Positions 8,879-49,000 of a DNA stretch of 64,000 nucleotides are shown here, in pieces (the first letter of the stretch is position 1; each line of letters starts with the position of its first letter). The position numbers and the translations under genes are program-made. This DNA comes from Bradymonadia bacterium (GTDB taxonomy: Bacteria > Myxococcota_A > Bradymonadia > UBA7976 > UBA1532), in assembly GCA_044376085.1 (NCBI GenBank), contig JBILLN010000017.1, forward strand, positions 3,186-67,185. Direction: 5' to 3'. The notes under the pieces are model-generated. The model worked only from the letters and a program-made list of their open reading frames with translations. It did not search any database and was not told the DNA's origin.

Positions 8879-8910
8879 GGGACTTCCGGTGGCGCTGGGC
8901 CGGCAGGGGT

Positions 8911-11636: not shown

Positions 11637-11800
11637 CCCGACCGTGACCCGTTGGGGCACCCGCGTCCGGGGAGAGTAAAGCCGGCGGTGTCGCGGCACC
11701 AGCAGGTCCTGAAGGTTCCTGCCCACTTGGCCCGCGCGCAGGGTTTACAAGGCGGCCGACCCGGTGGATAGTCCCTGGGAACGCTGGTCGACGGGTCCCC

Positions 11801-28528: not shown

Positions 28529-28546
28529 AACCGAGACGAACCGACG

Positions 28547-29023
28547 ATGTCCGAACGCCTCCCCATGACCCGTGCCGGGTTCGAGACGCTGCGCGAGCGG
28601 CTCAACCGCCTCAAGACGACGGACCGCCGCGAGGTCGCGCGCGAAATCGAGATTGCTCGGGGCCACGGTGACCTGCGCGAGAACGCCGACTACGACGCGG
28701 CAAAGAACAAACAGGGCATGATCGAGGCCAACATCCGCGATCTGGAGGACAAACTCGCCCGCGCCGAGGTCATCGACGTTGCCACGTTGTCGGGTGAACG
28801 CGTGGTCTTCGGCGCGACGGTGACGATCTCGGATACGAAGGACGGCGCCGAGCAGACGGTGCAGATCGTCGGCGAGGTCGAAGCCGACACCAAGAACGGG
28901 CGCATCTCCGTGACGTCGCCGCTGGCGCGGGCGCTGGTCGGCAAGAGTGTCGGAGACACGGTCAAGGCGCAGACGCCCGGCGGCGTGCGCGAGCTCGAAA
29001 TCATCGACGTTGTCTTCCGGTGA
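28547..29023 (+). CDS. greA: Transcription elongation factor GreA.
   Basis: It has the N-terminal coiled coil with the REIEIARGHGDLRENADYDAAK acidic tip and the C-terminal FKBP-like domain. Length is 158 aa. Confidence 0.9.
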   Translation: MSERLPMTRAGFETLRERLNRLKTTDRREVAREIEIARGHGDLRENADYDAAKNKQGMIEANIRDLEDKLARAEVIDVATLSGERVVFGATVTISDTKDGAEQTVQIVGEVEADTKNGRISVTSPLARALVGKSVGDTVKAQTPGGVRELEIIDVVFR

Positions 29024-33051: not shown

Positions 33052-36000
33052 TCAGTCGTCGTAGGGTTCGCTGACGCGGCGGAACATGCGGAACTGGCTG
33101 ATGAGGTCGCTGAAGTGACCGAGCTGGGCCCGGCGCTGCTCGAGCTCGGTCAGCGCGGCGGGCTCCGTCGGGTTCTGCTCCTCGAGCGCCGCGAGGGCGG
33201 CGGCCTGCTCGTTGAAGTAGGTCAGCAGCGACACGCTGATGGACTCGCCGTCGACGACCTGGGGCGCCACGTACGTCACCCGGGTGATCGGGTCGAGGTA
33301 CTTGACGACGGGCGTGTCTTCGGGGAGCTCCCGCGCCTCACCGGACCCCTCTTCGAAGAGCATGATGTAGTCGCGGAAGTCGGTCTCGCCGTCGAAGGAC
33401 GAGGAGTTGTAGACGGCCGACAGACCGAGCGTGCGCCAGAGCAGGGCAGGGGGCACCTGAGCGTCGATGCGCAAGGGCATTTCGGTGGGCGACGCCGCCT
33501 CGGCGGGCGCGCCGGGGTCGGCCTCGAAGCCCCAGGTCTGCGGATCGACCAGGTTTTCGGCCGTGACCCGGCCCTCGTCGTCCACGACCAGGCCGGTGTG
33601 GCTCAGGGTGCCGATGCCGAGGTAGGAGAACAGCATGTCCTTGGCCATCTTCACGAGCTCGGGGCGGAACAGCCGGTAGTAGTTGATGGAGAACCGCCGG
33701 CTGTCACCGAAGTCCGTGACGTTGAAGAAGTTCGTCGAGTCGTCGAGCAGGAACTGGAGGAACGCCGACTTGTCGAAGAACGTCCCGATGTAGTCGATGT
33801 TGTAGAGGTACTGGTCGTCGTACCGGAGGAACTGGTCACGCCCGAGGCCCTCGGGCACGTCCACGTACTGCTCACAGGTCTGTCCGGTCTCCGGCAGGAA
33901 GACCCCGCGGGTCGCGTCGAGGCAGTGCCGACCGGGGACCGGCGTGCCCATCACGCGCGAGATGAAGTTCAGGGACTCGAGCGCGGCCTTCAGGTAGTCG
34001 CGGCCGATCGCGGAGGTCTGGTTGCCGTAGACGTAGTACCGGACAGCGTAGGTCAGGTCGTCGATGAGGCCGGCCTGCCGCCCCATGAACCCGTTGACGA
34101 ACCCGCTCTCCATCCGCCCGCGCCGGAAGTTGTTGAAGAAGTAGTAGTTCCAGTAGCGGCTGATCGAGTTGTGGACGACCTCGTGGTTGCTCGAGCCCTG
34201 GTCGAACATCTTGCAGCGGGACCGGAAGAGATACGCGTGCTCGCAGTACGCATAGGGCACCTCCCGGGCAGTATGGAAGGTGACGTCCGGATCGCTGATC
34301 GAGTCGATGATCGCGGCTGTATTGGCCTGGATGCCGGCCGAACGCTCGCGGACGACCTCGTGCACGTCGGCGTCCTTGCGGGCCTTGAGGGCGTCGAGGT
34401 CGTCGTTGAGGAGCGACGGCACGGCGTCGGCGCCGTAGACGTAGGCGACGTAGAGGCCGAAGCCCGGGATGACCGGGAGCTTCACGCTGTCCTCGAAGAC
34501 CTCGATCTTGCGCGCATAGGCAGCCTTCATGGCGGCGTGGTCGTACTTGCCGAGGCCCTTGGTGTCGCTGTTGAAGCGCCCGTGGTAGTCCATGATGGTC
34601 GAGTAGGTGTACTCGGGGACGCGAGCCTCCGCGCGGTCGTCGATACCGTTGTCGTCGTTGTCCCCCGGGGCGATCTCGGCGACCTTCTTCCAGTACTCGT
34701 CCTGGTAGTTCAGCGCGTCGACGGAGCCCTCGAAGTTGTGCGTGAGGCCCATCGTGTGGCCGATCTCGTGCAGCGTCACCCCGCGGTAGATCTCGCGGCG
34801 GAGAATCTGGAAGAGCTCCTCGGGATCCCGGTCCTTGAGCTCGAGGGCCAGGCCGATCACCGCGTCGTCCATCATCTCGAAGGTGTCGATGCGGTGGTTG
34901 CCGAGCCAGGCATTGCGCTTTTCCATGCGCTCCGCGTAGGCACGCAGATCGGTCGCTGCCTCGGTGGCGGCCTGCTTCAGGGCCGGGCTGGGGCGATCGG
35001 CGGGCTCGCCGGCGTTGAAGACCGGGGCCAGGAGCTGCTGGAGCTCGTTCGGCACCATCATCGCCGCGAAGTCCGGATCCTCCATGGCCCGGGCGAGGCG
35101 GGCCTGACCTTCGCTCTGGACGGCCCGCTCGAGGGTGGCCGGTTTCGCCAGGGCGCGGACCGCCTTGAACTCGTCGCCCATCGCGCGCGGATCGACGCGT
35201 TTGCCGGGCTGCACCGCCGAGGGGACGAGCCCCATCTGGTTGCGGGCCTTCTGGCGGCGGGCCTCCGCTTTGGCGACGGTCGCAGCGGACAGGCCCTGAG
35301 TGGCCGTCTCCGTCCCGCGGCTGCGCTCCAGCCAATCGGAGACGTTCTTGCCCTGGAGGAGGTCGGCGAGGGCCAGGTCGCCGTTGATGGCGCGGACGGT
35401 ATCGACGGCGTTGCGGGCGTAGTTGTCGAGGGCGGCGCCGTAAATGTTCGCGTTGGCGCTGATGATGCGGCCGTTCTCACCATCCGTGCCCGAGGGACCG
35501 TACCCGAGGGGGCCGTCGGGCTGCTGCTCGTTGACCCAGTTCAAGAAGCTGAACCGGACGTCCCCGACCTTCTGGTACTGGAAGTAGTCGGCCTCGCCGG
35601 CGTCGAGGGTGGCGCGCTTGAGGGCCGCGCAGACGCGGTGCAGGTTGCCGGGGACGAGGACCTTCCGGAGGCGGGCGACCGCCGTGGCGTCGAAGTCCGT
35701 CGGTTCGTCGCCGGACAGGATGTGGGTCTGCGGCTTCGTTTCGTCGGCGACGAGGGCCGCCTCGACGTGGGGGTAGAACGCGGGGTGCTCGGTGAGGTAG
35801 TCGACCACGCCCCGGACGCCGCAGGTGTTCTCCCGAATCTGGTACATCCCCCGATGCTGGAGTTCGTCGCCTTCGATGAAGTAGTGGCGGCCGGGCTGGG
35901 CCTTGCTGTAGGCCTCGATCTCCGAGCGGAGGGCGGCATCGTCCCGACCGGTCCCGGCCCGGACGGCGTCCATCATGGCCGCGTCCCAATCCTGCGCGAT

Positions 36001-37578
36001 GCGGACCGTCTCGGCCTTGAGGTCTTCGGGGAAGTCGATGTTCAGGTAGTAGACGATGGGCCGCGGCTTCCGGTCGGCCATCGGGATGGCCTTGGGCTGA
36101 CCGTCGGTGCCGGCGACGCGGACGGGCTTCCCCTCGGCGTCGAGCACGATGGTGGGCTGGCCGTCTTCGCCGGGCTCGGTCTCGAACTCGTAGGCCGTCT
36201 GCCAGATGGGGTGGATGTTGACGAAGTACTGGCGCTGCTCGTCGCGACCCGCGCCGGTCTGGCGGTCGTATCCGGGGCGCTCCGTGCGGAAGAAGCCATG
36301 GCGCTCGAACTGCTGGAAGCTCGAGTCGTCGCAGTCGCGCTCGGTGTAGTACCCGGGGGCGAAGTAGTTATCGAGCGCCGTGAAGAGGTCCGGATTGCAG
36401 GCCACCTCGGCGAAGGGCACGGAGCACTCGCCGGGGCGCCCGGCCTGCGCGTCGTCGAACGTGCGGATGCAGGCTTCGTTCTCGGTGCACTCCGAGTCGG
36501 CGAGGCAGTTCGGCTGGCAGAGACCATCGCGGCAGGCGTTGCCGAAGCTGCACGCCGTCGAATCCGTGCAGCCGCGGCACAGGCCCTCGACGCACGTCAG
36601 CCCGTCCGAGCAGTTGGCGTCCGACGCGCACTGGCAGTTGGCGTCGACGCAGACGCAGAGGCCCTCCTGACACTCGAGGCCGTCCGGGCAGGCCGTCCGC
36701 TCGTCGCAGCTCCGGGACGGATCGTTGCTGCCGAACCGCTTGAGCGGGACGGGCAGGAACATCGTCTTCAGCGGCTTGCCATCGTCGTCGGTGTGCAGCA
36801 GCAGGTCGTCGTACTGGGTCGGCTCGAAGCGGGCCGACTCGACGTGGTCGATCTGCCAGAACGAGTGGCGAAGCCGAACGTCGGAGGAGGCGCAGCCCCA
36901 CTCGCCGTAGAGATAGCCGCACGTGAAGTCGTCGCCGACGATCCGCCGTGTGGTCATTTCGATGTAGCCGGGCTCGATGACCGGCTGGTGGGGCGAGAAG
37001 CGGTACTCGGTGTCGAGGTCCAGGCGAACGACACCGCCGACGACGGAGTTCACGAAGTTCAGGAACTCCCCGAAGTCCGCGGCACCGCCGACCGCGGTGT
37101 CGACCCTGATCCGGAAGTACTCGCGCTCGTCCCAGGGACGGTCCGAACTGTTCTCGCCGATGACGTTCGACTGCTCGCCGGTCGCCGAGTTGTAGCTGCG
37201 CTTGATGTCGAAGTGGCTGACGACGTCGAACATCGCAACGGGGTCGCCCTTGTAGTCGGACCCGGGCAGCGTGCGGTCTTCGTCGATGCCTGGCACGCCT
37301 TCGTGCGTGCGGTAGGCGATGAGTTTGTCCTCGCGGATCTCCCAGCGAATCTTCTCGATGTCCGCCTCGAGGCCGACGAACGCGCCCGAGAGGCCGGTGC
37401 CCGGATCGGACTCGACGATGGTCTGCCGGTAGTACCACTCCTTCTCGAAGAGGGACTTGGACAGATAGCCGGGCTGAACGGTGTTGATGTCCCCGACGGG
37501 CTCCGCACAGGCGGCCGCCAGGAAGCTCACGGCGAGGGCGGCGAGGCCGCGGGTCGTGCGATTGAGATGAGCGATCAT
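33052..37578 (-). CDS. Giant metzincin-type zinc-metalloprotease lipoprotein (about 1508 aa) with an inserted myxobacterial cysteine-rich repeat module.
   Basis: The signal peptide with lipobox is MIAHLNRTTRGLAALAVSFLAAAC, with GAGGGAG upstream. The zinc site is HEIGHTMGLTHNF (HExxHxxGxxH), and the Met-turn is STIMDY. The Cys-rich insert is CDERTACPDGLECQEGLCVCVDANCQCASDANC... The start was set inside the 1701-aa ORF. Confidence 0.7.
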   Translation of the reverse strand: MIAHLNRTTRGLAALAVSFLAAACAEPVGDINTVQPGYLSKSLFEKEWYYRQTIVESDPGTGLSGAFVGLEADIEKIRWEIREDKLIAYRTHEGVPGIDEDRTLPGSDYKGDPVAMFDVVSHFDIKRSYNSATGEQSNVIGENSSDRPWDEREYFRIRVDTAVGGAADFGEFLNFVNSVVGGVVRLDLDTEYRFSPHQPVIEPGYIEMTTRRIVGDDFTCGYLYGEWGCASSDVRLRHSFWQIDHVESARFEPTQYDDLLLHTDDDGKPLKTMFLPVPLKRFGSNDPSRSCDERTACPDGLECQEGLCVCVDANCQCASDANCSDGLTCVEGLCRGCTDSTACSFGNACRDGLCQPNCLADSECTENEACIRTFDDAQAGRPGECSVPFAEVACNPDLFTALDNYFAPGYYTERDCDDSSFQQFERHGFFRTERPGYDRQTGAGRDEQRQYFVNIHPIWQTAYEFETEPGEDGQPTIVLDAEGKPVRVAGTDGQPKAIPMADRKPRPIVYYLNIDFPEDLKAETVRIAQDWDAAMMDAVRAGTGRDDAALRSEIEAYSKAQPGRHYFIEGDELQHRGMYQIRENTCGVRGVVDYLTEHPAFYPHVEAALVADETKPQTHILSGDEPTDFDATAVARLRKVLVPGNLHRVCAALKRATLDAGEADYFQYQKVGDVRFSFLNWVNEQQPDGPLGYGPSGTDGENGRIISANANIYGAALDNYARNAVDTVRAINGDLALADLLQGKNVSDWLERSRGTETATQGLSAATVAKAEARRQKARNQMGLVPSAVQPGKRVDPRAMGDEFKAVRALAKPATLERAVQSEGQARLARAMEDPDFAAMMVPNELQQLLAPVFNAGEPADRPSPALKQAATEAATDLRAYAERMEKRNAWLGNHRIDTFEMMDDAVIGLALELKDRDPEELFQILRREIYRGVTLHEIGHTMGLTHNFEGSVDALNYQDEYWKKVAEIAPGDNDDNGIDDRAEARVPEYTYSTIMDYHGRFNSDTKGLGKYDHAAMKAAYARKIEVFEDSVKLPVIPGFGLYVAYVYGADAVPSLLNDDLDALKARKDADVHEVVRERSAGIQANTAAIIDSISDPDVTFHTAREVPYAYCEHAYLFRSRCKMFDQGSSNHEVVHNSISRYWNYYFFNNFRRGRMESGFVNGFMGRQAGLIDDLTYAVRYYVYGNQTSAIGRDYLKAALESLNFISRVMGTPVPGRHCLDATRGVFLPETGQTCEQYVDVPEGLGRDQFLRYDDQYLYNIDYIGTFFDKSAFLQFLLDDSTNFFNVTDFGDSRRFSINYYRLFRPELVKMAKDMLFSYLGIGTLSHTGLVVDDEGRVTAENLVDPQTWGFEADPGAPAEAASPTEMPLRIDAQVPPALLWRTLGLSAVYNSSSFDGETDFRDYIMLFEEGSGEARELPEDTPVVKYLDPITRVTYVAPQVVDGESISVSLLTYFNEQAAALAALEEQNPTEPAALTELEQRRAQLGHFSDLISQFRMFRRVSEPYDD

Positions 37579-37592: not shown

Positions 37593-40500
37593 TCACTTCC
37601 CGAGGTCCATGACGGAGCGCAGGAGGCGCATGTCGTCGATGGTGCTGAGGTAGAACTCGAGGGTCTGGTCGGCGTTCTCGAGGTCGTTCTCGCGTTGCGG
37701 ATTCTCCGGATCGGCGTCGAAGGCGCGCTTGGCGGCGTTCCAGTCTTCGGCGGCCTGCTTGGCGACGCGGAGGAGTCGGTAGGCGACGGAGAGCCCGTCG
37801 CGGGTCTGCGGGGCCTGGAAGATCTGGCCGGTCTTGGGGTTCTCGAACGTCGCGACCAGCGCCCCGTCCGCGATGGCCCGATCGTCGCCCGAGCCCTTCT
37901 CCTGCACGGCGATGTACTCGTAGAAGTCGAGCTTGGTATCCCCGGGGCGCGAGTTGAGCTGGGTCCCGGCGAACAGCCAGTACCGCATGAGGTCGAAGGG
38001 CGTGTTCGTCCAGATCTGCACGGGCTCGATCTCGTCGCCGTTCTCGTCGACCGGCGCCTCGGAGTGGCCGGGCAGGCGGCCGTCGACGGTGGAGAAGTCG
38101 AACATCGTGGGGAAGGTGTGCACCGCCTCGCCCTTCTCGTTCTTCGTCGTCGACCACTGGAACGCCCGGTGTCCGAAGTTGCCGAGGCCGGCGTCGAGGA
38201 GGTCGAGCGTCAGGTCGAGCAGGCGGTCCTTGAAGACGTCGTAGAACCCGAAGCGGAGGTCGATCTCGCCCGCGGCGTTGACCGGCGGGCGGATGAAGAC
38301 GTTGCCGGCGTTCAGGAGCGGGATGATGAAGTTCTGCTTCTCGAAGAACGAGCCCATGTACTCGTACTTGGTCTGATAGTCGTCCGAGAGGTCGATGTAC
38401 ATGTCGCGGCCGACGCCCAGGGGGAGTTCCATCCGGTCACAGGCCTCGCTGCGGAAGTAGTCCGGGTTGAACCCGAAGGCCCAGTACGGGACGTAAGTGA
38501 TCTGCTCCTTGAGGGAGTTGCCCGTATTGGCCTTGCAGTACCAGCCCGGCTCGGGCGCGCCGACGACCTGCATCGTGAAGTCGGTGGCGATCATGGCGGC
38601 GCGCAGGAGGTCCTCGGTCAGGTCCATCGGGGTGCCGTCGCGATTCACGTACTGCTGGAAGAACGAGTAGTGCTTGTAGGGGTAGTTCAGGTAGGGCAGC
38701 AGGCGGCCCATGCGGCTGAAGAACCCGAGATAGAACTGGTACTCGTCCCGACCGCGGCGCCAGGAGTTGAAGAAGTAGTAGTTCCAGTAGCGCTGGATGG
38801 CCGAGCGGACGGCTTCTTCGTGGGTGGGGCCCTCGTCCCAGGTGCGGCACTTGGGGTCGCGACCGTTGAAGTAGTCGAAGCAGTAGAAGTACGGCACCGT
38901 CCGGTCGCGCCAGTAGCCCTCCGCGCCGGCGTCCGGGCTCTCCGCGAAGCGCTTGCCGTTCTCGCGGATGCCTTCGCGCGCCTCGGCGATGACCTCGTCG
39001 ACGAGACGGTCCTCGCGGCGGGTCAGGTTTGCGGTGCTGCCGCCGAGAAGCTGCGGGATCTTGGTGTAGTGGTCGTACTCGAGGTGGAGATCCAGCCGGC
39101 TGGGGACCTCCACGCTCTCGTCGAAGGCCTCGATGAGCCCCGTGTACGCGAACTTGATGGCGGCCTGGTCGTACTTGCCGAGGCCGTGGAAGTCCGAGTT
39201 GAAGCGGGCGCCGTAGTCCATGATCGAGGTGTAGCGGTACTCGGGCTGAAGGTGCTCGTCGCGCTCCTCGTCCGTGTCGTAGCGCTCCTCGAGGTCCCAG
39301 AACGTGTCGAAGTAGTTCAGCGCGTCGTGCGAGGCCCGGAAGTTGTGGGTCATGCCCAGCGTGTGGCCGATCTCGTGGAGCATCACGCCGCGGAAGATCT
39401 CCTTGCGGAGGTCCTCGTAGACCTCGACCGGGTCCCGCCCCTTGAGGCTGAGCGCCCGGCCGATGACCGCGTCGTCGTAGAACTCGGGCAGGGTGATGTT
39501 GCGCTCGATGTAGAAGTCGGCGCGCTTCTGCATGTGTTCCGAGATGGCGGCGGGGTTGGCGGCGACCTCGATGGTGGCCTCGAGGAGGTCCTCCGGCATG
39601 TCCTCGCCCTCGTGGGCGTTGGGGTCCCACTGGAACAGGCGGTAGAGCATCGACATCACGGGGCGGGGGAGCATGCGGGTGCGGAGCTCCGGGTTGTCCC
39701 GCAGGCGCTGCTTCATGAGGTCCATCGGATCGGGTCCGGCGGCCTGGGCGAACATGGGGTCGTCCGCCCGCTTCAACTCCGACCGCGTGACCATGTCGTG
39801 GGACATGCGGCTCAGGTCGACCTTGCCGTCGGCCGAGCGGAAGCTCTCGGGGTTGGCGGCCTGGAACGTCGAGAAACGCTGCTTCAACGCGGCGCGCTGG
39901 GCCTCCGTGACGGTGAGGGGCTGGTCGGCCACGCTCTTGTTCCGAAGGTCGAGCCAGTCGGTGATCGTCTTGCCCGAGGCGATGTCCTCGAAGGCGTCGT
40001 CGATGTCACCATTGAGGAAGCGGACGAGGTCCATCGAGTCCCGGGCGTAGCCGTCGACCGCCGCGCCGTACACGTAGGCGTTGCCGCTGATGATGCGGCC
40101 CGTCTCGGCGTCGGGGCCGGAGGGGCCGAAGCCGAGGGGACCGGAGGGCTGGTCTTCGTTGACCCAGTAGACGAAGTTCCAGCGAACGTCACCGACCTGC
40201 TGGTAGGTGAACTTCTCGAGGCCGCGGGCGCGGCTCTCGGCCGTCAGCGCGGAGCAGACGGGCTCGAGGTTGCCGGCGAGGATGTTGTTGGGGTTGCCGG
40301 CATCCACCGCGTCGCTGTCGAGGTCGTCGGCGTGCGTCACCGAACGGACGACGTCGACGAGTTCGGGGACGCGCTCGAGATAGGCGTCGATGACCTCGCG
40401 GCGGCAGTCGTTGTCGTCGATGCGGTAGGCCGCGCCGTGACCGGTCTGCTTCTTCAGCTCGGCGCGCAGGGCCTCGGGCGACTTGCCCTGAGCCGAGGCG

Positions 40501-41792
40501 ATGGCATTGACGAAGAGGCGGTCCCAGTCGGCGGCGATCTCCTGGGCGGTGCCCTTGAGGTCCTCGGGGAAGTTCACGTTCAGGTGGTAGACGATGGGCC
40601 GCACCTTGCGGTCCTTGACCGGGATGACCACCGGATTCCCGTCGGCATCCCGCTTCAGTTTGGGCTTGCCGGCCTCGTCACGGGCAATGACCGGCGCGCC
40701 CGTCTCGTCCTCGGTCATCTCCCACGCGTAGACCTGTTCCCAGATCTTGTGGTGGTTGGCGTAGAAGTTGCGCAGCTCGTCGTGCCCGTTGGGGAGCCGG
40801 CGGTTGGCGTCGTAGCGCTCCGTGCGGAAGAACCCGAAACGACCCATCTGGTTGTGGGTCAGCGGCTTGCAGTCCTCTCGGCGGTACTTGCCGCGGAGCT
40901 GCTCGAGCACGTCGTCGGTGCACTCGACGTCGACGTAGTCGACCCCGCCGTCCGGCTTGGGGACCGAGACGGTCAGCGAGTACATGATGGCCCCGTTCTC
41001 GTCGCGGACGAACTCGCGGTCGAGGTAGGAGCGCGGCTCGAACTGCGCGGCGTCCTCGGGGTCGATGCGCACGAAGCTGTGGCGCACCTTGACCTCGCCG
41101 AGACCGCAGGAGTTCCGGGTGTTCGTGGACGTCCGGTAGAAACCGTACTCGATGAAGCAGGTGTAGCCGCCGTCGGTGACGGTGTACGACGTCGTGAACG
41201 AGATCGTCCCGTCCTCCAGATCCGCCTGGAAGTGGTCCGGATTGGCGATCTCCGTCTCACGGGCCCAGTAGGTGCCCGTCGAGAACGTCGCGAACAGCTT
41301 GGCGAAGTCCTGACCGACCGCCGCCGCCGACGACCAGTCCGCCCGGAAGAAGTCGCGCTCGAACCAGGGACGCAGCGAGCTGTCCTCGTTCAGGACGTTG
41401 CTCTGGGTGCCGTTGGCGCTGTTGTAGTCGCGCACGATGTCGAAGTGTTCGACGCCGCTGACGCGCAGGATGGTGTCGCCCTCGAACGTGGCGCCGGGCC
41501 GCGTCTCGTCCTCGTCGAGGCCGCGGATGCCCTCGTGCGTCCGGCGGGCGTGCAGCGCATCGCCGTAGAACTCGAACTTGACCTTCTCGACCTTGCCCTC
41601 GAGGCCGACGAAGCCGATGCCGACGTCCGGCGGGACGTCGACGATCGTCTGGCGGTAGTACCACTCGCCATCGAGCATCGCCTTCTTGAAGTAGTGCGGT
41701 TGGACCCGGTTGACGTCCTTCACCTCTTCCGCACACGACGGCAGAAGAGAGATGAGCGCGGGTACGACGGCGGCCTGCCAGAAACGTCGCAT
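37593..41792 (-). CDS. Giant metzincin-type zinc-metalloprotease lipoprotein (1399 aa), a paralog of the downstream gene.
   Basis: The signal peptide is MRRFWQAAVVPALISLLPSC (lipobox). The zinc site is HEIGHTLGMTHNF, and the Met-turn is TSIMDY. It is colinear with gene 1 over most of its length (EWYYRQTIV, QSNV, FFRTER, LGFGPSGPD, RYWNYYFFN). Confidence 0.7.
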   Translation of the reverse strand: MRRFWQAAVVPALISLLPSCAEEVKDVNRVQPHYFKKAMLDGEWYYRQTIVDVPPDVGIGFVGLEGKVEKVKFEFYGDALHARRTHEGIRGLDEDETRPGATFEGDTILRVSGVEHFDIVRDYNSANGTQSNVLNEDSSLRPWFERDFFRADWSSAAAVGQDFAKLFATFSTGTYWARETEIANPDHFQADLEDGTISFTTSYTVTDGGYTCFIEYGFYRTSTNTRNSCGLGEVKVRHSFVRIDPEDAAQFEPRSYLDREFVRDENGAIMYSLTVSVPKPDGGVDYVDVECTDDVLEQLRGKYRREDCKPLTHNQMGRFGFFRTERYDANRRLPNGHDELRNFYANHHKIWEQVYAWEMTEDETGAPVIARDEAGKPKLKRDADGNPVVIPVKDRKVRPIVYHLNVNFPEDLKGTAQEIAADWDRLFVNAIASAQGKSPEALRAELKKQTGHGAAYRIDDNDCRREVIDAYLERVPELVDVVRSVTHADDLDSDAVDAGNPNNILAGNLEPVCSALTAESRARGLEKFTYQQVGDVRWNFVYWVNEDQPSGPLGFGPSGPDAETGRIISGNAYVYGAAVDGYARDSMDLVRFLNGDIDDAFEDIASGKTITDWLDLRNKSVADQPLTVTEAQRAALKQRFSTFQAANPESFRSADGKVDLSRMSHDMVTRSELKRADDPMFAQAAGPDPMDLMKQRLRDNPELRTRMLPRPVMSMLYRLFQWDPNAHEGEDMPEDLLEATIEVAANPAAISEHMQKRADFYIERNITLPEFYDDAVIGRALSLKGRDPVEVYEDLRKEIFRGVMLHEIGHTLGMTHNFRASHDALNYFDTFWDLEERYDTDEERDEHLQPEYRYTSIMDYGARFNSDFHGLGKYDQAAIKFAYTGLIEAFDESVEVPSRLDLHLEYDHYTKIPQLLGGSTANLTRREDRLVDEVIAEAREGIRENGKRFAESPDAGAEGYWRDRTVPYFYCFDYFNGRDPKCRTWDEGPTHEEAVRSAIQRYWNYYFFNSWRRGRDEYQFYLGFFSRMGRLLPYLNYPYKHYSFFQQYVNRDGTPMDLTEDLLRAAMIATDFTMQVVGAPEPGWYCKANTGNSLKEQITYVPYWAFGFNPDYFRSEACDRMELPLGVGRDMYIDLSDDYQTKYEYMGSFFEKQNFIIPLLNAGNVFIRPPVNAAGEIDLRFGFYDVFKDRLLDLTLDLLDAGLGNFGHRAFQWSTTKNEKGEAVHTFPTMFDFSTVDGRLPGHSEAPVDENGDEIEPVQIWTNTPFDLMRYWLFAGTQLNSRPGDTKLDFYEYIAVQEKGSGDDRAIADGALVATFENPKTGQIFQAPQTRDGLSVAYRLLRVAKQAAEDWNAAKRAFDADPENPQRENDLENADQTLEFYLSTIDDMRLLRSVMDLGK

Positions 41793-41907
41793 TCTTCACA
41801 CCTCGTGGGTTGGCATTCGAGCGGCCCCCCGTTTGGGACCCGCGCCACCCCCCCTGCATGCCGAAGCGTGCATGGATTGACGCGAATCAAGGGCCGGGGG
41901 CGACGTA

Positions 41908-41924
41908 GGCAACTCCCGTGCCGC
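41908..41924 (-). promoter_or_regulatory. Sigma-54 (-24/-12) promoter upstream of metalloprotease gene 2.
   Basis: The minus-strand sequence is GCGGCACGGGAGTTGCC, i.e. GGCACG-N4-TTGC with canonical GG/GC spacing. It lies about 115 nt upstream of the ATG at 41792. An A-tract is immediately upstream and two G8 tracts lie further upstream. Confidence 0.5.
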
Positions 41925-42014
41925 TTTTTTGGCAAGCGAAAACGCGCGGTCGGGGGGGGCGGTCCGGTCGGAGCGGCGCCGGGGGGGGCGAACGTGAAGA
42001 AACGAACGGCGGGT

Positions 42015-43028
42015 TCAGGTCTCGGGGACGGGGTCGGCAGCGGGTCCGCCGCTGAGGGCGGGATCGGGATCGCGGCTGGGGGCGCGGCGACCGTTCGGGC
42101 GGTGGCGGGCGAAGTACCAGGCCGCCGAGCAGGCGGTCTTGACCGTGTCGGCCACGCCCATGCCCTCCAGGTTGGGCCAGAACAGATTGCACTCGCCGCA
42201 GGGTTCGATCTCCTTGCGGCGACCCGTGCGGTGGTACTCGCGGTACTTCGAGGCGGTATTGCCCCGGTACACCTCGAGCACGGACTGCTCGCGCACGTTG
42301 CCCCAGGTGTACTCGCCCTCGTGGTCCTGGCAGCAGAGCGTGACCTTGCCGTCGCTCAGGATGTCGAGGCGGGTGATGTGTTCGCAGCCGTAACTCGGGA
42401 CGGGGAACGCGGAAGGGATGTCGCCCTTGTAGTTGAACTGCCCGACGATGAAGGGCTGCACCCCCATGCTTTCGCAGTAGTCCGAGAAGGCGTCCTGCTC
42501 TTCCAGCGTGGTGTCTTCCATCCGGACCATGCGGAACTGGATCTTGGGGGCGACCTTGCTGCGCCGGACGGGGTCGACCAGGTACTTCATGTTGTCGAGC
42601 GTGCGCTCGAGCTTGAAGCCCATGATGTTCTTGTACCGGACGGGATCGAGGGTGTTCAGGCTGATGGTCAGGCGGTCGACGCCCCCGATGGAGACGAGCT
42701 CGTCGATGCGCTTCGGCACGAGGCCGTAGCCGTTCGAATACAGGCCGAGGCGGGTCTTCGGCAGGCGACTGCGGATGTGCTGGAGCCGACCGATGATGCG
42801 GGGGTCGACGAAGGGCTCGCCGTTGAGGAACGGTTCGATCTCTTCGAGCGGGAAGGCCCGGCAGTCCTCGACGATCTTCTCGAAGAGGTCCTGGTCCATG
42901 TGGAACTTGTCGCGAGCCTTGAAGTTGTACGGGCAGAACGGGCAGGCGGCGTTGCAGCGGCTGGTCGTCTCGATGGAGACCATGCGCGGGTACTCACCGC
43001 CATCCATGACGCGTTGACGGAAGATCAT
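42015..43028 (-). CDS. Radical SAM enzyme with a SPASM/twitch-like C-terminal Cys-rich region.
   Basis: The radical SAM box is SIETTSRCNAACPFCPY (Cx3Cx2C). The C-terminal Cys residues are LCCQDHEG ... CGECNLFWPN. The composition (rich in K, N, Y, F) is atypical for this window. The start is at MIFRQRVMDGG, with GAGGA 7 nt upstream. Confidence 0.75.
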   Translation of the reverse strand: MIFRQRVMDGGEYPRMVSIETTSRCNAACPFCPYNFKARDKFHMDQDLFEKIVEDCRAFPLEEIEPFLNGEPFVDPRIIGRLQHIRSRLPKTRLGLYSNGYGLVPKRIDELVSIGGVDRLTISLNTLDPVRYKNIMGFKLERTLDNMKYLVDPVRRSKVAPKIQFRMVRMEDTTLEEQDAFSDYCESMGVQPFIVGQFNYKGDIPSAFPVPSYGCEHITRLDILSDGKVTLCCQDHEGEYTWGNVREQSVLEVYRGNTASKYREYHRTGRRKEIEPCGECNLFWPNLEGMGVADTVKTACSAAWYFARHRPNGRRAPSRDPDPALSGGPAADPVPET

Positions 43029-43071
43029 GTGGACGTCCTCGCGGAGAGTGAGATGAATCGAGGGCCGTCGA

Positions 43072-43086
43072 GCAAGATGCGTGCCC
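43072..43086 (-). promoter_or_regulatory. Sigma-54 (-24/-12) promoter upstream of the radical SAM gene.
   Basis: The minus-strand sequence is GGGCACGCATCTTGCT, i.e. GGCACG-N4-TTGC. It lies about 45 nt upstream of the ATG at 43028, within the 157-nt gap after the GT4 gene. Confidence 0.5.
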
Positions 43087-43185
43087 GGGACCCGAGGTTG
43101 CGGGTCGTCGTTTCCGGAGTACGCCTGCTCCAGATCGACCTCCCCCTGGCGCACGGATACCGCAGGTCGACGCGGGTATGCGAGG

Positions 43186-44361
43186 TCAACGCCGCGCGGC
43201 CAGCCGCTCCTCGTAGAAGGCCCGCAGGCGCTCGCCCCGCGCGTCCCAGGTCAGCGAGGCCGCCAGCGTCCGGGCGCCCCGGGCGAGACGTGCCCGGAGG
43301 TCCGGGGCCTCGAGCAGGCCGCGCAGGGCGCTCACCAGAGCGGGGACGTCGTCGGGGTTCACGAGGCGCGCGTTCTCGCCGTCGCGCAGAAGCTCCGTCG
43401 TATCGGGCAGGTCCCCGGCCAGCACGGCGCGGCCGGCCGCCAGATAGGTGAAGAGCTTCAGGGGCATGACCGTCGTCCCCTCCTCGGTGAGGGGGCGGCG
43501 GCTGGGCGGAACGAGCAGCACGTCGGCCGCCAGGTGGGCCTGCTCGAGGCGCTCACCCGTGAGAAATCCGAGGAAACGCACGTTCTCGAGGCCCTGGGCA
43601 GCGGCTTTCATCTCGCGCGCGTCGTCGGTCCCGTCGTGGCCGACGAAAACGAAGCGGACGTCCGGCATCCGGCGGGCGGCGTCGATGAAGAGGTCGCAGG
43701 CTTTGGCGCGCCCGAGCCGGCCCGCGTACACGGCGGTGGGCCCCTCGGAAAGTCCGAGGGCGGCGCGCGCCGAGGCGGGGTCGCGGTCCGTCGCGAGGAG
43801 TCGGGCATCGAACCCGTTGTACAGCGTGACGACCTTCTCCGGGGGCACGCCGTCTCGAACGAACTGCTCCCGGACGAGTCGGGAGTGGACGATCAGCCCG
43901 GCGAAGGCGCGCAGCGGCGTCAGGTGGCGAAAGACCGGGCGCACGGCGGGGAACTGGGCCGTCAGCGGGCGATAGGTCTCGAAGAAGAGCGGTCGTCGCG
44001 CGCCCAGCATCGCCAGGGACGGCAGGAGCGTGCGGGTGTGGACGAGGTCGTAGGGGCGTCGCAACGCCGAGCCCGTGGCCAGCGCGCCGCCGGCGAGCTT
44101 CGTCAGCAGGCGCGGGCCGCTCAGCGCGCCCGGAACGGGGCAGAGTCGAAACTCGCAGCCCGTGGCGTAGTGGGCCCTCAGGGCGTCGTGGAGCGCCGCC
44201 CGGGCGGAGGCGTCCCGGACCGCCGCGGCGTTCGGCGCAACGGGGAAGTACAGGTCGACGGCCACGCCCGTGCGGCCGAGCGCCGACAGGGCGTTGACGA
44301 ACTGAATCGTGTCCGCCCCGTGGCCGGGCAGGACTTCGTCGGTCAGAAAGGCGATGCGCAT
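43186..44361 (-). CDS. GT4-family glycosyltransferase (GT-B fold).
   Basis: The N-terminal domain is MRIAFLTDEVLPGHGADT. The C-terminal nucleotide-sugar domain is EEGTTVMPLKLFTYLAAGRAVLAGDLPD (an EX7E-like region). The start was set at MRIAFL inside the longer ORF. Confidence 0.7.
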   Translation of the reverse strand: MRIAFLTDEVLPGHGADTIQFVNALSALGRTGVAVDLYFPVAPNAAAVRDASARAALHDALRAHYATGCEFRLCPVPGALSGPRLLTKLAGGALATGSALRRPYDLVHTRTLLPSLAMLGARRPLFFETYRPLTAQFPAVRPVFRHLTPLRAFAGLIVHSRLVREQFVRDGVPPEKVVTLYNGFDARLLATDRDPASARAALGLSEGPTAVYAGRLGRAKACDLFIDAARRMPDVRFVFVGHDGTDDAREMKAAAQGLENVRFLGFLTGERLEQAHLAADVLLVPPSRRPLTEEGTTVMPLKLFTYLAAGRAVLAGDLPDTTELLRDGENARLVNPDDVPALVSALRGLLEAPDLRARLARGARTLAASLTWDARGERLRAFYEERLAARR

Positions 44362-44396
44362 GGCGCGGCGCGCATGCGACGATCGTGCCAGCGACG

Positions 44397-45374
44397 TCAG
44401 GGGATGTCGGACGCCAGCCACGCCGCGAGGGGCGCGAAAACCGCCCGCTCGGCGGGCTCGCTGATGAAGAGGTCCGCGTGAGCCATCGGCGTCGCGGCGT
44501 CGCCGGCGACGACCACGCGCCGGGCGTGCGCCGGTGCACCGATGGTCTCGTCCCCCGTGCGAACGACCGCCTCGGGAACGATGCCGTCGGCGTTGGCGAC
44601 GATCGTGAGGAGGGGGTGCGCGACCCGGGCGAGATCGGTGGTCAGGTTTCGCCGATCGAGCACGAGGTCCCGCTGGCGGATCCAGCGGGCGATCTCGAAG
44701 TTGATGCGCGCGACGGGGTCGTCGACGGTGTTCACCAGGCTTTCGGGTCGGCTGAGGTCACAGATGCGCGGGTTCAGGTAGAGGTCGAGCGCGCCGGGCA
44801 CGCGGGCGATGGCGGGCAATGCCAGCCGCGCCAGGGTGCGGGTGCCGCGCATGGCGGGCAACCCGAGGGGAAGCTGTGCCAGCGCCCGCACCAGCGGATG
44901 CGCCGTCGTCCAGGAGAGGGGGCCGCCCAGATTCACGAGGCGGCGGAGGGGCGCGTCGGGACGCCACGCCGCCTGCATGAAGACGTAGGTCGCGCCGAGG
45001 CTGCATCCGATGGCGTCCACCGGGCCGGGCGGCAGCGCGCTGTGGCGGGGGACCGCGTCGAGGACCGCCCCCAGATCCACGACGCCCACGTCCGCGAGGC
45101 CGAACCCCCTGCGCCGGCCGCGACCGGGGATGGGGTGTGCGTGACCCTGCCCGCGCAATTCGACGCAAAAGACCTCGAACCCGCGGTCTGCCAGGTATGC
45201 GGCCAAGGGTCGACCCGTGGGGTGGTACCCCAGGATGTACGCGTTCATGGCGAAGCCCGGCACGATGACCACGGGGCGGCGGTGCAGGTCGAGGCGCTGC
45301 GGATCGCGATAGCGGTGCAGGGCGAGGCGCCAGCCAGCCCCGTTCTCGGTGAAGTAGGTCCGTCGTTCGAGCAT
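44397..45374 (-). CDS. Alpha/beta-hydrolase fold protein (esterase/lipase/thioesterase-like).
   Basis: An HG-type oxyanion region is VVIVPGFAMN. The nucleophile elbow is GCSLGA (GxSxG). C-terminal Asp/His candidates are present. The start was set at MLERRTYF inside the 763-aa ORF. Confidence 0.65.
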   Translation of the reverse strand: MLERRTYFTENGAGWRLALHRYRDPQRLDLHRRPVVIVPGFAMNAYILGYHPTGRPLAAYLADRGFEVFCVELRGQGHAHPIPGRGRRRGFGLADVGVVDLGAVLDAVPRHSALPPGPVDAIGCSLGATYVFMQAAWRPDAPLRRLVNLGGPLSWTTAHPLVRALAQLPLGLPAMRGTRTLARLALPAIARVPGALDLYLNPRICDLSRPESLVNTVDDPVARINFEIARWIRQRDLVLDRRNLTTDLARVAHPLLTIVANADGIVPEAVVRTGDETIGAPAHARRVVVAGDAATPMAHADLFISEPAERAVFAPLAAWLASDIP

Positions 45375-45527
45375 GGACCGCAGTCTGACGAACCGGGGTC
45401 GTCGTGTCACGGCTCGCGCGCGGCCGGCGCCTGCGGTGGCCACCCGAAGGCCACCCGGGGCGCCAGTTCGAGGCGTCCGGACCCACCCGCGCCCTCGCTT
45501 TCGGCGAGCGAAGGGCCCCGGACGCCC

Positions 45528-45542
45528 GGCCCGAGGTTTGCA
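45528..45542 (+). promoter_or_regulatory. Candidate sigma-54 promoter upstream of the ACP gene (one mismatch in the -24 box).
   Basis: CGGCCCGAGGTTTGCAA is GGCCCG-N4-TTGCA. The GG-to-GC spacing is correct and TTGCA is a perfect -12 box. GGAGG is 5 nt before the ATG at 45573. Confidence 0.25.
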
Positions 45543-45572
45543 ACCCGGGTGAGCGACGCCCCGGAGGCGGAC

Positions 45573-45866
45573 ATGGACGACCTGATGCGCGTGCCGATCT
45601 TCCAGCGCCTGAAGCACATCCTGGTGACCGACTTCGCCAAGGACGAGGCCCTCGTGACGCCGTCCGCGACGTTGCGCGGGACGCTGATGATGGACAGCCT
45701 CGACCTCGTCGATCTCGTGTTCTTCCTCCAGCGGGAGTTCCACCTCGAGGCCCGGCTCGAGGACCTTCGCGACGTGAAGTCGCTCGACGCGCTCGTGACC
45801 TACATCGCCCGCAGCGCCGGCTCGGCGACGAGCCCGGCGACGACGCCGGCAGCCGCCGCGGGCTGA
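45573..45866 (+). CDS. Acyl/peptidyl carrier protein.
   Basis: It is a 97-aa acidic protein with the phosphopantetheine attachment motif LMMDSLDLVDLVFFLQ (DSL). GGAGG is 5 nt upstream of the ATG. Confidence 0.7.
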   Translation: MDDLMRVPIFQRLKHILVTDFAKDEALVTPSATLRGTLMMDSLDLVDLVFFLQREFHLEARLEDLRDVKSLDALVTYIARSAGSATSPATTPAAAAG

Positions 45867-46001
45867 GGCGGACCCGGCGCCGGGGCCAAGGAGCCGCGTC
45901 GGCCGTTGCCCGTCGGGCTGGCTCCGGCGTACCATGCTCCCCGACGCCGGGGCGGACCCGGCCAGGCTTCTCTCCACGGACCCCGGACGGTTCCCCAAGG
46001 C

Positions 46002-49000
46002 ATGCAGCCAGGCCAGGTCGTCGGCGACCGCTACCGCATCGAGCAACTCATCGGCGAGGGCGGCATCGGCCAGGTCTTCCGCGCCCGCGACCTCATGACC
46101 CGCGAGCTCGTGGCCCTGAAGGCGCTCCGCCCCGAGTTCGCGCGAGACGCCCGCATCAAGCGACGTTTCATGCGCGAGGCCCGGGCCGTCGCGCGCCTGC
46201 AGCATCCCCACATCGTACGGCTCTTCGCGTGCGGGGACAGCGACGACGCCCCGTACATCGCCATGGAGCTCATCGAGGGTCAGGCCCTCTCCGAGCACCG
46301 GGACCAGGGCCTGCATCTCGATACGCTGCTCCAGGTCATCGACCAGACGCTCGCAGCGCTCGCGTTCGCTCACGCCCGGGGCGTCGTCCATCGCGACGTC
46401 AAACCCGAGAACATCCTGGTCTCGTGGGTCGACCGCGGTCGGCGTCCGTTCGTCAAGTTGCTCGACTTCGGGTTCGCGCGCGTGGAGGGCGACCAGGACA
46501 TCAAGCTCACTCAGGTTCAGGGCGATGCCTTCGGAACGCCGCTGTACATGGCGCCCGAGCAGGCCTCGGCCAAGGGCAACGTCGGGCCCGAGACGGACCT
46601 CTACGCCATCGGCGTGATTCTGTTCGAGTTTCTGTCCGGCCAGCCGCCGTTCACGGGGGCACACGGGATGGCCGTCGCCCTCAAACACGTCATGGAGCCC
46701 GTCCCCGATCTGCGCGCGCGGGCGGGGCTGGCCATGCCCTTCGGACTCGAGGACGTCGTCCGCCGCGCCCTCGAAAAGGAGCCCCGCAGCCGGTGGCGAA
46801 CCGCTGCGGACCTGCGTCGGGCACTCGCACAGTTTTCCCAGGGCACGGAGTCGGCCCCGCCCGAGGACGACGCCGACGACCAGACCATGGCCGGTCCCGC
46901 CGGCCCGCCACCGCCCGTTTCACCCTTGGCCGGCGCGGCGCCGGCGATGCCCTTCGACGACGGGCCGCGCAGCGACCCCACCCTCGTCACGGGGCTCGGT
47001 CGGGGCCCGACGACCGGCGCGCATCCCGTCCCCCTGTTTCGCGCGCTCGAGCCGGAGCCCTCGGGCGCCGGTGTCGAGGAAGCCCTGGTGGCCGATCCGG
47101 ACACGCAGGCCCTCGTCGGTCGAGAAGCCGAACTCATGTGGCTGTGGGAGCGGGCCCGGGAGGTCTGCGACCGGGGGGAGGCGCGCATCGTCCTGCTGGG
47201 CGGCACGCCGGGCATGGGCAAACGTCGGCTCCTGAGCTGGCTCGAGGACCAGGTCGCGGAGGGAGCGTGGATGCTCCACGTCAGCGGGAGCCGACCGACC
47301 GCGCCCGACGCCGGCCCTCGGACGGACCTGCGAGCCCTCCTGGCCGCGGTTTTCGGCAGCCTGCCGGCCGAGCGCCGGCCCGCGGAGCAGATCATCCTGC
47401 AGATGCTCGAGCGGTGGGCGGGCATGCCCAGCGGGTTGCCCCGGCCCGAGCCGGCCATGCTGGGCGTCCTGGCGACGACGATGGCAGCCTGGCTGTGCCC
47501 GGCGCCCGGCGCGCTGGCCACGGACGAGATGGGAGAACTGCGCGGCGAAGCGCTGTACGCCCGCGCCCTGGAACTGCTGCAGATCGCCGCCCGCGAGCGG
47601 CCGGTGCTGCTGACCGTCGAGTCCATCGAGGACGCCGGCCACGAGACGTGCGGTTTCCTGGCCTGGGCGAGTCGATGGTTGCGGCGGGTCGAACTGCCCC
47701 TGCTCGTGGTGGCCGGGTACACCGTCGACGATGGCGGAGCAGCCCGGCACCCGATGGCCGGCGCCTTTGTCGGCTCGCTGTCCGCCGTCGGCGGCCCCGA
47801 GGTGCAGTCCCTCCTGCTCAGGCCCCTGGACGCGGCCACGGTCGCCGACCTCCTGGCCAGCATCGCACCGATCGACGCGACCGTCGCCGAAGCCATCGCG
47901 CGGCGGACCCATGGCAACCCGTACTTTGCCCGGGAACTGCTGCTGTGGGCCTCGCAGGCCGGGGAACTCGTCACGGAGCGCGGCCGGCTGGTGCTGTCGC
48001 GCAGCGCGCGGCCCCAGGCGTGGCCCACCTCGCTGCCGGAGACGCTGCTCCTGCGGACGGACGAGACGCTGGGGCGCAAGCCGGGGGGAGACGCCGCGCG
48101 CCGCGTTTTGGAGTGCTCGGCCTTGCTCGGCGAGCACTTCGAGTACGAGCTGCTCGTGGCGTTCATGGTGCCGTTGGTGGGCGACCGCGCCACGGTGGAG
48201 CGCGGCATCGAGCTTCTGCTGCACTGCAACATCTACGGGGAGTCGGGCACGCTGGAGGGCGATCGGCTCTTTCTGCGGCACGACGTGATGCTCGGTCCCC
48301 TGCGGGAGCGCCTCGCCGCCGGCGGGCAGCTCCCCCGACTCCATCGGCTGGCGGCCGATACGATGCTGCGGATCTACACCCGCAACCCCACCCCCTTCGC
48401 CGAGCCGATCGGCGCACATCTCGAGGCTGCGGGTGCGACGACGGAGGCGGCGCAGCAGTTCCAGCTCGCCGCGGCCGCGCGCCGCGAACACGGACAGCTC
48501 GCCGCCGCGGCGGATCTCCTCGAACGCGCGGACGCGCTGCTGGCGCAGTCGACGGAGGTCGGCGCAGACCTGAAACGTGCCGCGGGCTGGCTCGACCTGG
48601 GGGAGCTCGAGCTGCGGCGCGGGCAACAGCCTCGGGCACGAACCCTGGCGGGCCGGGTCTACACCTGGGCGCGGCAGAACGGTCAGGCGGGTCTCGAGGG
48701 CCGGGCGCTGCTGCTCGTCTCGGATCTCTTTCGTCGCCAGAACCAGCTCGGCGAGGCCGGGCGCGGGTACGCGCAGGCCCGGGCGGTTTTCGAACGGGCC
48801 CAGGATCGCGCCGGATACGCTCGATCGCTGCTGGGGGCGGCCATGGTGGAGCGGAGCCTCGGACGGGTGGAGTCGGCGGTCGAACTGTTCGAACTCGCCC
48901 GTCAGGCGATGGAGGCGGCCGGCGACCATCACGGCCTGGCCCGGGCCTGGCGGGGGCAGGGGGAGATTGCGCTGCGGATGGGGGAACTCCTGGCGGCGCG

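Follow-up and report, generated by a model that had tools for sequence, protein, structure and literature searches.

A conserved sigma-54-type promoter predicted upstream of a giant metalloprotease gene pair in Myxococcota

Introduction

Promoters recognized by sigma-54 (RpoN) stay inactive unless a dedicated ATPase activator switches them on, and transcription from them begins approximately 12 nt downstream of the C of the -12 element. The upstream activator sequence (UAS) of NifA reads TGT-N10-ACA, and the V. cholerae FlrC system is a sigma-54 system in which the enhancer lies downstream of the promoter. A downstream enhancer is likewise described for B. subtilis rocG/RocR (reference B138 in PMC3162934). 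Enterobacterial sigma-54 promoters, among them glnAp2, pspA and rtcB, are collected in the Barrios 1999 compilation (S2 Table, PMC12316311). In M. xanthus, actB, MXAN6732 and MXAN989 are targets of the NtrC-like enhancer-binding proteins (EBPs) Nla28 and Nla6, and the accepted sigma-54 promoters are more degenerate, with CGGCATG-N4-TTGCG at MXAN6732 and CCGCACG-N4-TTGCT at MXAN989 (PMC9765219). For M. xanthus 53 EBPs have been reported, and Myxococcota carry dozens; in organisms that possess sigma-54, correctly oriented sites located 0–200 nt before a start codon are reported to be mostly genuine (PMC3162934). Loss of rpoN by deletion is reportedly lethal to M. xanthus (PMC12316311).

Here, we describe a predicted sigma-54 promoter in a 64-kb stretch of Bradymonadia DNA, referred to below as the window. 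That a Myxococcota genome should contain a sigma-54 promoter is no surprise. What is new, as judged by comparing orthologous loci, is a promoter that appears to be ancestral to an unstudied pair of giant surface metalloproteases and that is accompanied by a downstream box at a fixed offset.

Results

A sigma-54-type core precedes a tandem zincin gene pair

The original prediction placed a near-consensus sigma-54 promoter before a giant metalloprotease operon, and the description of the operon is a fair one. Zincin A and its paralog zincin B are 34–39% identical, and both possess an intact metzincin motif (HEIGHTxGxTHN) together with a lipoprotein signal peptide, the lipobox of zincin A being LLPSC. 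The end of zincin A and the start of zincin B are separated by 14 nt, so the two genes are probably co-transcribed, and the tandem pair is kept across orthologous loci while the gene upstream of it changes. Naming at the NCBIfam equivalog level was found neither for the zincins nor for the hydrolase, and a full-text literature search for DUF4953 gave no papers.

Direct reading of the minus strand from 41924 to 41908 gives GCGGCACGGGAGTTGCC, in agreement with the sequence and coordinates originally claimed (Table 1). The -24 GG dinucleotide occupies 41922/41921 and the -12 GC dinucleotide 41910/41909, leaving exactly the 10 nt between them that the predicted spacing demands. On the same strand, the C of the -12 element precedes the zincin A ATG by 116 nt, where about 115 nt had been stated, and the site is intergenic, in a gap of 222 nt (41793–42014); it thus lies within the 0–200 nt interval, and in the orientation, in which sites are reported to be mostly genuine in sigma-54 organisms. 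The term near-consensus is somewhat generous: relative to TGGCACG-N4-TTGCW, 10 of the 12 positions agree and the GGCACG-N4-TTGC core is itself perfect, but C replaces T at -26 and W at -11. The motif also includes a perfect GGCA...TGCC inverted repeat. From the predicted transcription start, the 5′ leader would be approximately 105 nt long, and an in-frame TGA is situated one codon 5′ of the zincin A ATG.

Table 1 Features of the window and of the promoter-bearing orthologous loci. Positions are those of the window; GC to ATG is the distance from the -12 GC to the start codon.
Feature	Position	Strand	Sequence	Leader box	Remarks
Third sigma-54-like site	44375–44390	-	TGGCACGATCGTCGCA		In 35-nt gap before glycosyltransferase ATG (44361); 14.6 bits, rank 3
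Second sigma-54-like site	43071–43086	-	GGGCACGCATCTTGCT		About 44 nt before radical SAM/SPASM start (43028); 14.6 bits, rank 4
Radical SAM/SPASM gene	42015–43028				Upstream of zincin A
Upstream A-rich box	41993–42008	+	CGTGAAGAAACGAACG		Inverted relative to gene; just past radical-SAM stop codon
Predicted sigma-54 core promoter	41908–41924	-	GCGGCACGGGAGTTGCC		Direct reading and orthologous motif
Predicted transcription start, about 41897	41895–41899	-			From fixed sigma-54 promoter geometry
Leader box	41867–41882	-		CGTCAATCCATGCACG	About +16 to +31 of predicted transcript
Shine-Dalgarno and ATG of zincin A	41790–41804	-	GAGG		GAGG at 41804–41801, ATG at 41792–41790
Zincin A	37593–41792	-	HEIGHTLGMTHN		1399-aa lipoprotein; Met-zincin (DUF4953) domain (Pfam PF16313, 5e-10); motif at residue 806
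Zincin B	33052–37578	-	HEIGHTMGLTHN		1508-aa paralogous lipoprotein; lipobox
Enhancer-binding protein 1	7082–9787	-			FHA-GAF-sigma54 AAA+-HTH_8; GAFTGA intact; true start probably about 8900
Enhancer-binding protein 2	57911–61984	-			AAA_16/STAND-TPR-sigma54 AAA+-HTH_8; GAFTGA intact
Promoter, L001			CGGCACGggagTTGCC (same in window)	CGTCAGTTTGCGCACG	93% identity to zincin A; GC to ATG 114 nt
Promoter, L003			CGGCACAggagTTGCC	CGTCAGTCGTCGCACG	74% identity to zincin A; GC to ATG 105 nt
Promoter, L002			CGGCACGtaccTTGCG	CGTCATGAGACGAACG	58% identity to zincin A; GC to ATG 87 nt
Promoter, L004/L006/L007			CGGCATGgattTTGCT	CGTCAACCGACGCACG (L004)	55% identity to zincin A; GC to ATG 91 nt
Promoter, L015			TGGTACGgcagCTGCA	TGTCACTCCGCGCACG	44% identity to zincin A; GC to ATG 103 nt; leader box offset 41, counted by hand
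Promoter, L008			TGGCTTGataaTTGCA	CGTCAGGGGGCGCACG	43% identity to zincin A; GC to ATG 92 nt
Promoter, L009			TGGCGCGcgccTTGCA	CGTCAACCGATGCACG	40% identity to zincin A; GC to ATG 99 nt
Promoter, L010			TGGCGTGtatcTTGCA	CGTAACGACAAGCACA	39% identity to zincin A; GC to ATG 97 nt
Promoter, L013			TGGCACTaatcTTGCT	CGTAAAAAAAAGCACA	39% identity to zincin A; GC to ATG 70 nt

The window site scored alone lies at background level

The window has a G+C content of approximately 70%. The exact core GGCACG-N4-TTGC occurs twice in its 64 kb against an expectation of 0.25, a count of two being reached in 3 of 100 shuffles; each copy is intergenic and on the minus strand, and the two belong to one gene cluster. 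Sites with at most two mismatches to the 12-position consensus number six in the window, as compared to 6.7 in shuffled sequence. Their placement is uneven: three of them fall into three consecutive coding-strand gaps (41793–42014, 43029–43185 and 44362–44396), which together comprise 414 nt and in which, at the background rate of 5.6e-5 per nt, approximately 0.02 sites would be expected.

Scoring with a position weight matrix (PWM) had been proposed as a check on the original prediction. We built the matrix from 51 validated sigma-54 sites, 23 from E. coli and 28 from Desulfomicrobium (S2 Table, PMC12316311). With this E. coli/Desulfomicrobium matrix, the window site scores 6.13 bits, the 17th highest value in the window and lower than that of any training site. 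By this check the window site, taken alone, does no better than background: 16 sites in the window reach 6.13 bits, and random first-order Markov sequence of the same composition contains 14.9 ± 3.9. The low score stems almost wholly from the C at -26 and the C at -11, which also place the site under the training promoters, 48 of the 51 carrying T at -26 and 48 of the 51 carrying A or T at -11. We regard this outcome as a caveat rather than a refutation, since the penalty is dominated by the T at -26 and the W at -11, which are not conserved in the phylum. It is, moreover, outweighed by orthologous sites of other lineages, which rank first in their loci at 12–24 bits, and by the acceptance of CGGCATG-N4-TTGCG in M. 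xanthus.

The window motif taken alone is thus not statistically compelling, and with window statistics at background level, chance is excluded only through position and through conservation at orthologous loci. A general PWM would reject the site and phylogenetic footprinting rescues it; conversely, the PWM prefers two neighboring sites that lack conservation.

The core is conserved upstream of orthologous zincin genes

Orthologous loci were gathered by scanning contigs from genomes and metagenomes for patterns, supplemented with homologous proteins and the contigs that encode them; L002–L007 stem from freshwater samples. The nearest relatives of the window are Myxococcota metagenome-assembled genomes. 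A GG-N10-GC motif with sigma-54 flanks is present 70–116 nt before the orthologous ATG in eight lineages beyond that of the window, down to 39% protein identity, and the 10-nt spacing is kept in all nine orthologous sites. The prediction of a sigma-54 promoter for the metalloprotease operon is thereby strongly supported by eight further lineages, at a chance probability of approximately 0.01 per locus. This estimate derives from shuffles and is the probability of an intact GG/GC site with at most two mismatches per 300-nt upstream region; since the independent lineages number at least six or seven, each at approximately 0.01, chance is excluded.

Alignments were anchored on the motif, as MAFFT alignment of the upstream regions had mis-registered it in L002 and L004. 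In the anchored alignment of four lineages (the window, L003, L002 and L004), the sigma-54 positions alone are invariant, forming a C-GGCA-..-TTGC island with a variable 4-nt spacer and unalignable flanks. The gene located 5′ of the promoter varies as well, being a radical SAM gene, a divergent glycosyltransferase, an alpha/beta hydrolase, greA, carB or an unrelated gene.

In several lineages the orthologous site is the best PWM match of its locus, with 15.7 bits in L004/L007, 19.0 bits in L008, 12.0 bits in L009 and 24.0 bits in L013; because the site tops the ranking in these loci, the zincin family bears a bona fide sigma-54 signature. By this comparison the window copy is a lower-scoring variant within the zincin promoter family. 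The L002 site scores only 2.2 bits, and C at -26 is common to four separate lineages, namely the window group, L003, L002 and the L004 group.

The sigma-54 motif is absent upstream of the zincin gene in L014 and absent from L005, the zincin of which is 27% identical. At L017 the site is degenerate (CGGCGCG-N4-TCGAT, GA replacing GC), and at L012 an unclear start codon clouds the status of the motif. At L011, L012 and L016, it is the second zincin gene of the pair that encodes the matched protein.

Two conserved boxes flank the core

A 16-nt box with the consensus YGTMA-N6-YGCACR accompanies the promoter in every promoter-bearing locus. Measured from the first G of the -24 element, this leader box begins 37–42 nt downstream, corresponding to approximately +13 to +33 of the predicted transcript. 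Its outer triplets mostly follow CGT-N10-ACG, with TGT-N10-ACG in L015 and CGT-N10-ACA in L010 and L013. The pattern CGT-N10-AC[GA] is found at offset 37–42 in nine of the nine promoter-bearing loci tested, with a shuffle-derived probability of approximately 0.003 per locus; a joint probability over these loci would be inflated, as the definition of the pattern was post hoc.

Progressing further upstream, an A-rich box resembling CGTRAGAAARNGMACR is positioned 77–138 nt 5′ of the GG in six loci, approximately 100–160 nt 5′ of the predicted start. All 15 positions match in L004, L008, L009 and L015; 13 of the 15 match, in inverted orientation, in the window and in L003 (shuffle P 0.001–0.002, the window value being 0.002). 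The window copy starts 86 nt 5′ of the -24 GG, and the upstream box is absent in L001, L002 and L013; L014, which has no sigma-54 motif, lacks the boxes too. Within a genome the upstream and leader boxes are alike: both carry ATGCACGCCG in L009 and both carry ACGCACGG in L004.

Across the whole window, CGT-N10-ACG and the leader-box pattern occur about as often as expected by chance, so the boxes are meaningful only through their fixed position and their identity across lineages. An unbiased 9-mer enrichment analysis upstream of the promoters returned no enhancer above shuffle level. As this search stayed within shuffle levels and the generic pattern is at chance, the upstream box is less secure than the leader box.

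We also considered the leader box as an RNA structure and rejected this reading: when the leaders are folded one by one, the pairing of the box changes from lineage to lineage, and the complementarity of a CGT/ACG stem is broken in L010 and L013. With folds inconsistent and pairing broken, the boxes are read as DNA sites and not as RNA.

Activators and other signals around the operon

The claim that the window encodes two sigma-54 activators holds, both proteins possessing an intact GAFTGA motif, a Sigma54_activat domain and a Fis-type HTH (HTH_8). EBP 1 and EBP 2 are encoded approximately 32 kb and 16 kb from the promoter, respectively. In seven orthologous loci, searched up to 6 kb on each side, no EBP genes were found around the operon. 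Since Myxococcota carry dozens of EBPs, finding two of them in the window does not speak for a link to the promoter, and both are only candidate activators of the zincin promoter. Their intact GAFTGA motifs suggest a working sigma-54 system in the organism; rpoN itself is not encoded in the 64-kb window, where no RpoN box was found.

Between 41500 and 44600, a scan of both strands detected no sigma-70 consensus promoter (TTGACA-N16–18-TATAAT-like), a scan that misses divergent Myxococcota and ECF promoters, and an Rfam search of the same interval at E ≤ 1 returned no family. No intrinsic terminator was found in this interval between the radical-SAM gene and zincin A; one terminator-like site detected in the scan is intragenic and irrelevant. 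Read-through from the radical-SAM gene is possible in this genome, as there is no terminator in between, but it is not the conserved way of expressing the operon, since the upstream gene differs between lineages.

The two neighboring sigma-54-like sites, GGGCACGCATCTTGCT and TGGCACGATCGTCGCA, are kept only in L001 (93% identical) and are absent from L003, for which reason we do not claim them as established promoters; they may be promoters particular to this lineage, with a part in co-regulating the cluster. Initiation from the TGGCACGATCGTCGCA site would give an almost leaderless mRNA.

Discussion

Taken together, the geometry of the motif and its recurrence before orthologous genes argue that 41924–41908 is in all likelihood a functional sigma-54 promoter driving the two-gene zincin operon, and that this promoter is, as far as the compared loci indicate, an ancestral feature of the zincin operon in Myxococcota. 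A model can be outlined from established sigma-54 properties: the holoenzyme would bind the -24 GG/-12 GC elements to form a closed complex, an AAA+ EBP would remodel this complex by ATP hydrolysis such that transcription starts near 41897, and the operon would stay off unless a signal activates the EBP. The conserved boxes would bind the controlling regulator, a step suggested by their conservation.

Three other explanations were weighed. The first views the window site as a relic or weak sigma-54 promoter, decayed at -26 and -11, with expression mainly by read-through from 43071–43086 and 44375–44390. The scores invite this view, at 6.1 bits for the window site and 14.6 bits for each of the upstream sites, as do the lack of a terminator between the genes and the L017 site, the -12 GC of which has decayed to GA, demonstrating that decay is possible in the zincin family. 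We nevertheless consider it unlikely: C at -26 recurs in four separate lineages and so looks tolerated or preferred rather than decayed, the GGCACG-N4-TTGC core is perfect, promoters of lower quality work in M. xanthus (PMC9765219), and even L003 lacks the upstream sites.

Very unlikely, in our estimation, is that the motif serves as the operator of another DNA-binding protein (for example, one recognizing a GGCA-N7-TGCC dyad), with transcription starting from an unrecognized sigma-70 or ECF promoter. The inverted repeat of the window is consistent with an operator only locally, as the dyad is lost in L002 (GGCA...TGCG), L004 (GGCA...TGCT) and L008 (GGCT...TGCA), and its lack of conservation argues against a palindromic operator; what is conserved is specific to sigma-54, namely the GG, the TTGC and the exact N10 spacing. 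A consensus scan covers Myxococcota sigma-70 and ECF promoters poorly, and the leader box just downstream could belong to another promoter or operator; on the other side, no sigma-70 consensus was found in 41500–44600, and distant lineages come nearer to the full consensus TGGCAC...TTGCT/A, with PWM scores of up to 24 bits. Hardly credible is a chance match in a GC-rich 64-kb window, the operon being served by another promoter or by radical-SAM read-through: mismatch counts (6 vs 6.7) and a PWM score at background level and the lack of a terminator after the upstream gene would suit it, but the motif lies at the same distance in approximately eight lineages with unalignable flanks, at approximately 0.01 each, and the three sites in 414 nt of consecutive gaps exceed by far the approximately 0.02 expected.

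Returning to the sigma-54 promoter, the conserved boxes are probably regulator sites, as their conservation suggests. Most likely, to judge from their likeness within a genome, both would bind one dimeric DNA-binding regulator, which could be the cognate activator or a repressor. That this regulator is an activating EBP is a tentative proposal, and a repressor or looping role is equally open. If one regulator does bind both boxes, two modes of action can be envisaged: activation by an EBP from an enhancer close to the promoter on its downstream side, or repression, with the sigma-54 closed complex looped out or roadblocked. Either logic, if true, would be unusual and would define the regulon of the conserved giant surface metalloprotease pair. 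The arrangement may possibly, though this is doubtful, constitute an undescribed conserved control region in three parts: an upstream A-rich dyad box, the -24/-12 core, and a second box in the CGT-N10-ACG frame at +13 to +33. The three-part arrangement would span Myxococcota lineages with zincins that are only ~40% identical.

A conserved sigma-54 promoter would mean that cells produce the pair of 1400–1500-residue surface metalloproteases only in response to a specific signal. Signal-gated expression would narrow the search for the role of the zincins, with predation, envelope remodeling or development as possibilities, and signal-gated surface zincins would fit the proposed role of sigma-54 as chiefly a regulator of the cell exterior (PMC3162934). 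The conserved boxes could act as bait to capture the regulator and, used as search motifs, help to predict regulons among uncultured Myxococcota.

Among the closest characterized systems, the M. xanthus promoters come from the same phylum as the window site, share the TGGCACG-N4-TTGC(T/A) architecture and tolerate a base other than T at -26, MXAN6732 having the C-26 variant of the window (PMC9765219). Lipoproteins and envelope functions are among the products they control, and many EBPs are encoded in the genomes. The characterized M. xanthus sites are mostly intragenic, whereas the window site is intergenic, and the Nla28 half-sites (CT[C/G]CG[C/G]AG direct repeats) differ from what the zincin loci conserve. 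With the enterobacterial promoters the site shares a GG and a GC 10 nt apart, the TTGC -12 box and a distance of less than 200 nt to the start codon.

The conserved boxes resemble the NifA UAS in their 16-bp frame with outer dyad triplets, and the upstream box lies at a typical UAS distance, approximately -100 to -160. They differ from it in an outer base that is mostly C/G and not T/A, and in that the best-kept zincin box is downstream of the start at a fixed offset, unlike the arrangement of NifA sites. A NifA ortholog is not implied, as neither window EBP reaches the cut-off of any NCBIfam equivalog. The enhancers of rocG and FlrC lack the fixed and very close offset of the leader box, a candidate site at +13 to +33; rocG/RocR and FlrC nonetheless provide precedent for an EBP site past the transcription start, where the leader box lies.

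Conserved sequence boxes flank the zincin promoter

The promoter that precedes the zincin pair, the two paralogous genes for Met-zincin lipoproteins, is accompanied by two conserved boxes. Downstream of it, a 16-nt leader box, YGTMA-N6-YGCACR, keeps constant spacing in all promoter-bearing lineages; its offset from the −24 GG is +37 to +42 in nine of the orthologous zincin loci (L001–L004, L008–L010, L013 and L015). Upstream, an A-rich box, CGTRAGAAARNGMACR, lies 77–138 nt 5′ of the promoter at six loci; in each case it is similar to that genome's own leader box, and its orientation is reversed in the window and in L003. Two C8 tracts (minus-strand C runs) lie between the A-rich box and the promoter in the window intergenic region, and neither L001 nor L003 carries them.

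Positions of promoter-associated sequences and neighboring genes
Feature	Position	Strand	Remark
Leader box	41867-41882	-	window
A-rich box	41993-42008		window
A-rich box	~5800		L004
A-rich box	~3818		L008
A-rich box	~3750		L009
A-rich box	~2771		L015
C8 tracts	41981-41988; 41952-41959	-	window
Sigma-54-like site GGGCACGCATCTTGCT	43071-43086	-	intergenic gap 5′ of radical SAM/SPASM gene; PWM 14.6 bits
Sigma-54-like site TGGCACGATCGTCGCA	44375-44390	-	intergenic gap 5′ of glycosyltransferase gene; PWM 14.6 bits
Sigma-54-like site TCCGGCACGAATCCTGCCA	10102-10120	-	10.8 bits, rank 5; inside Ser/Thr kinase gene 9810-11726
Coding string ACTGGAACTACTACTTCTT	38770-38788; 34136-34154	-	PWM ranks 1 and 2
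carB	25250-28528	+	window
greA-sized ORF	28529-29023	+	window
Ser/Thr protein kinase genes	45906-53269; 9810-11726	+; -	three genes in window

Additional sigma-54-like sites in the window

The two highest positions in the window under the sigma-54 position weight matrix (PWM) are occupied by one identical string, ACTGGAACTACTACTTCTT, which encodes the peptide WNYYFF and is shared by the two zincin paralogs and every ortholog. This coding string turns up repeatedly as a false positive in sigma-54 scans. Two further intergenic sites, GGGCACGCATCTTGCT and TGGCACGATCGTCGCA, are both retained in L001 and missing from L003; mRNA initiated from TGGCACGATCGTCGCA would be almost leaderless. As to published matrices, S3 Table (supplementary file 4) of PMC12316311 is presented as a PSSM of seed sigma-54 promoters; its content is MEME protein motifs of enhancer-binding proteins (EBPs), YDWPGNVRELEN and VLITGESGTGKE, and it holds no DNA matrix.

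Gene order around the zincin pair

In five more distant lineages (L008, L009, L010, L013 and L017), carB-greA is followed directly by the zincin pair on the same strand. The window carB and greA-sized ORF lie only ~4 kb from the pair, yet they are encoded on the other strand, and recG and one unknown gene intervene; this suggests that an ancestral carB-greA-zincin-zincin order was inverted or rearranged here. Genes for a GT4 glycosyltransferase and for an alpha/beta hydrolase also lie near the pair in several lineages (window 42015-46688, minus strand; L002, L004 and L017), and this recurrent proximity hints at a functional link. Their placement and orientation vary by lineage: L002 has a divergent glycosyltransferase, in L004 the hydrolase sits upstream, and L017 has the glycosyltransferase downstream and the hydrolase on the other strand. 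Only the window group was seen to carry the radical SAM/SPASM gene.

Signaling genes and a candidate EBP promoter

The window is dense in signaling genes. Two of its three Ser/Thr protein kinases are tandem, very large kinase-STAND(AAA_16)-TPR proteins, and an AAA_16-TPR sensor region likewise occurs in one of the window EBPs. Upstream of the gene for the FHA-GAF EBP lies TCCGGCACGAATCCTGCCA, which could be an intragenic promoter of that gene.
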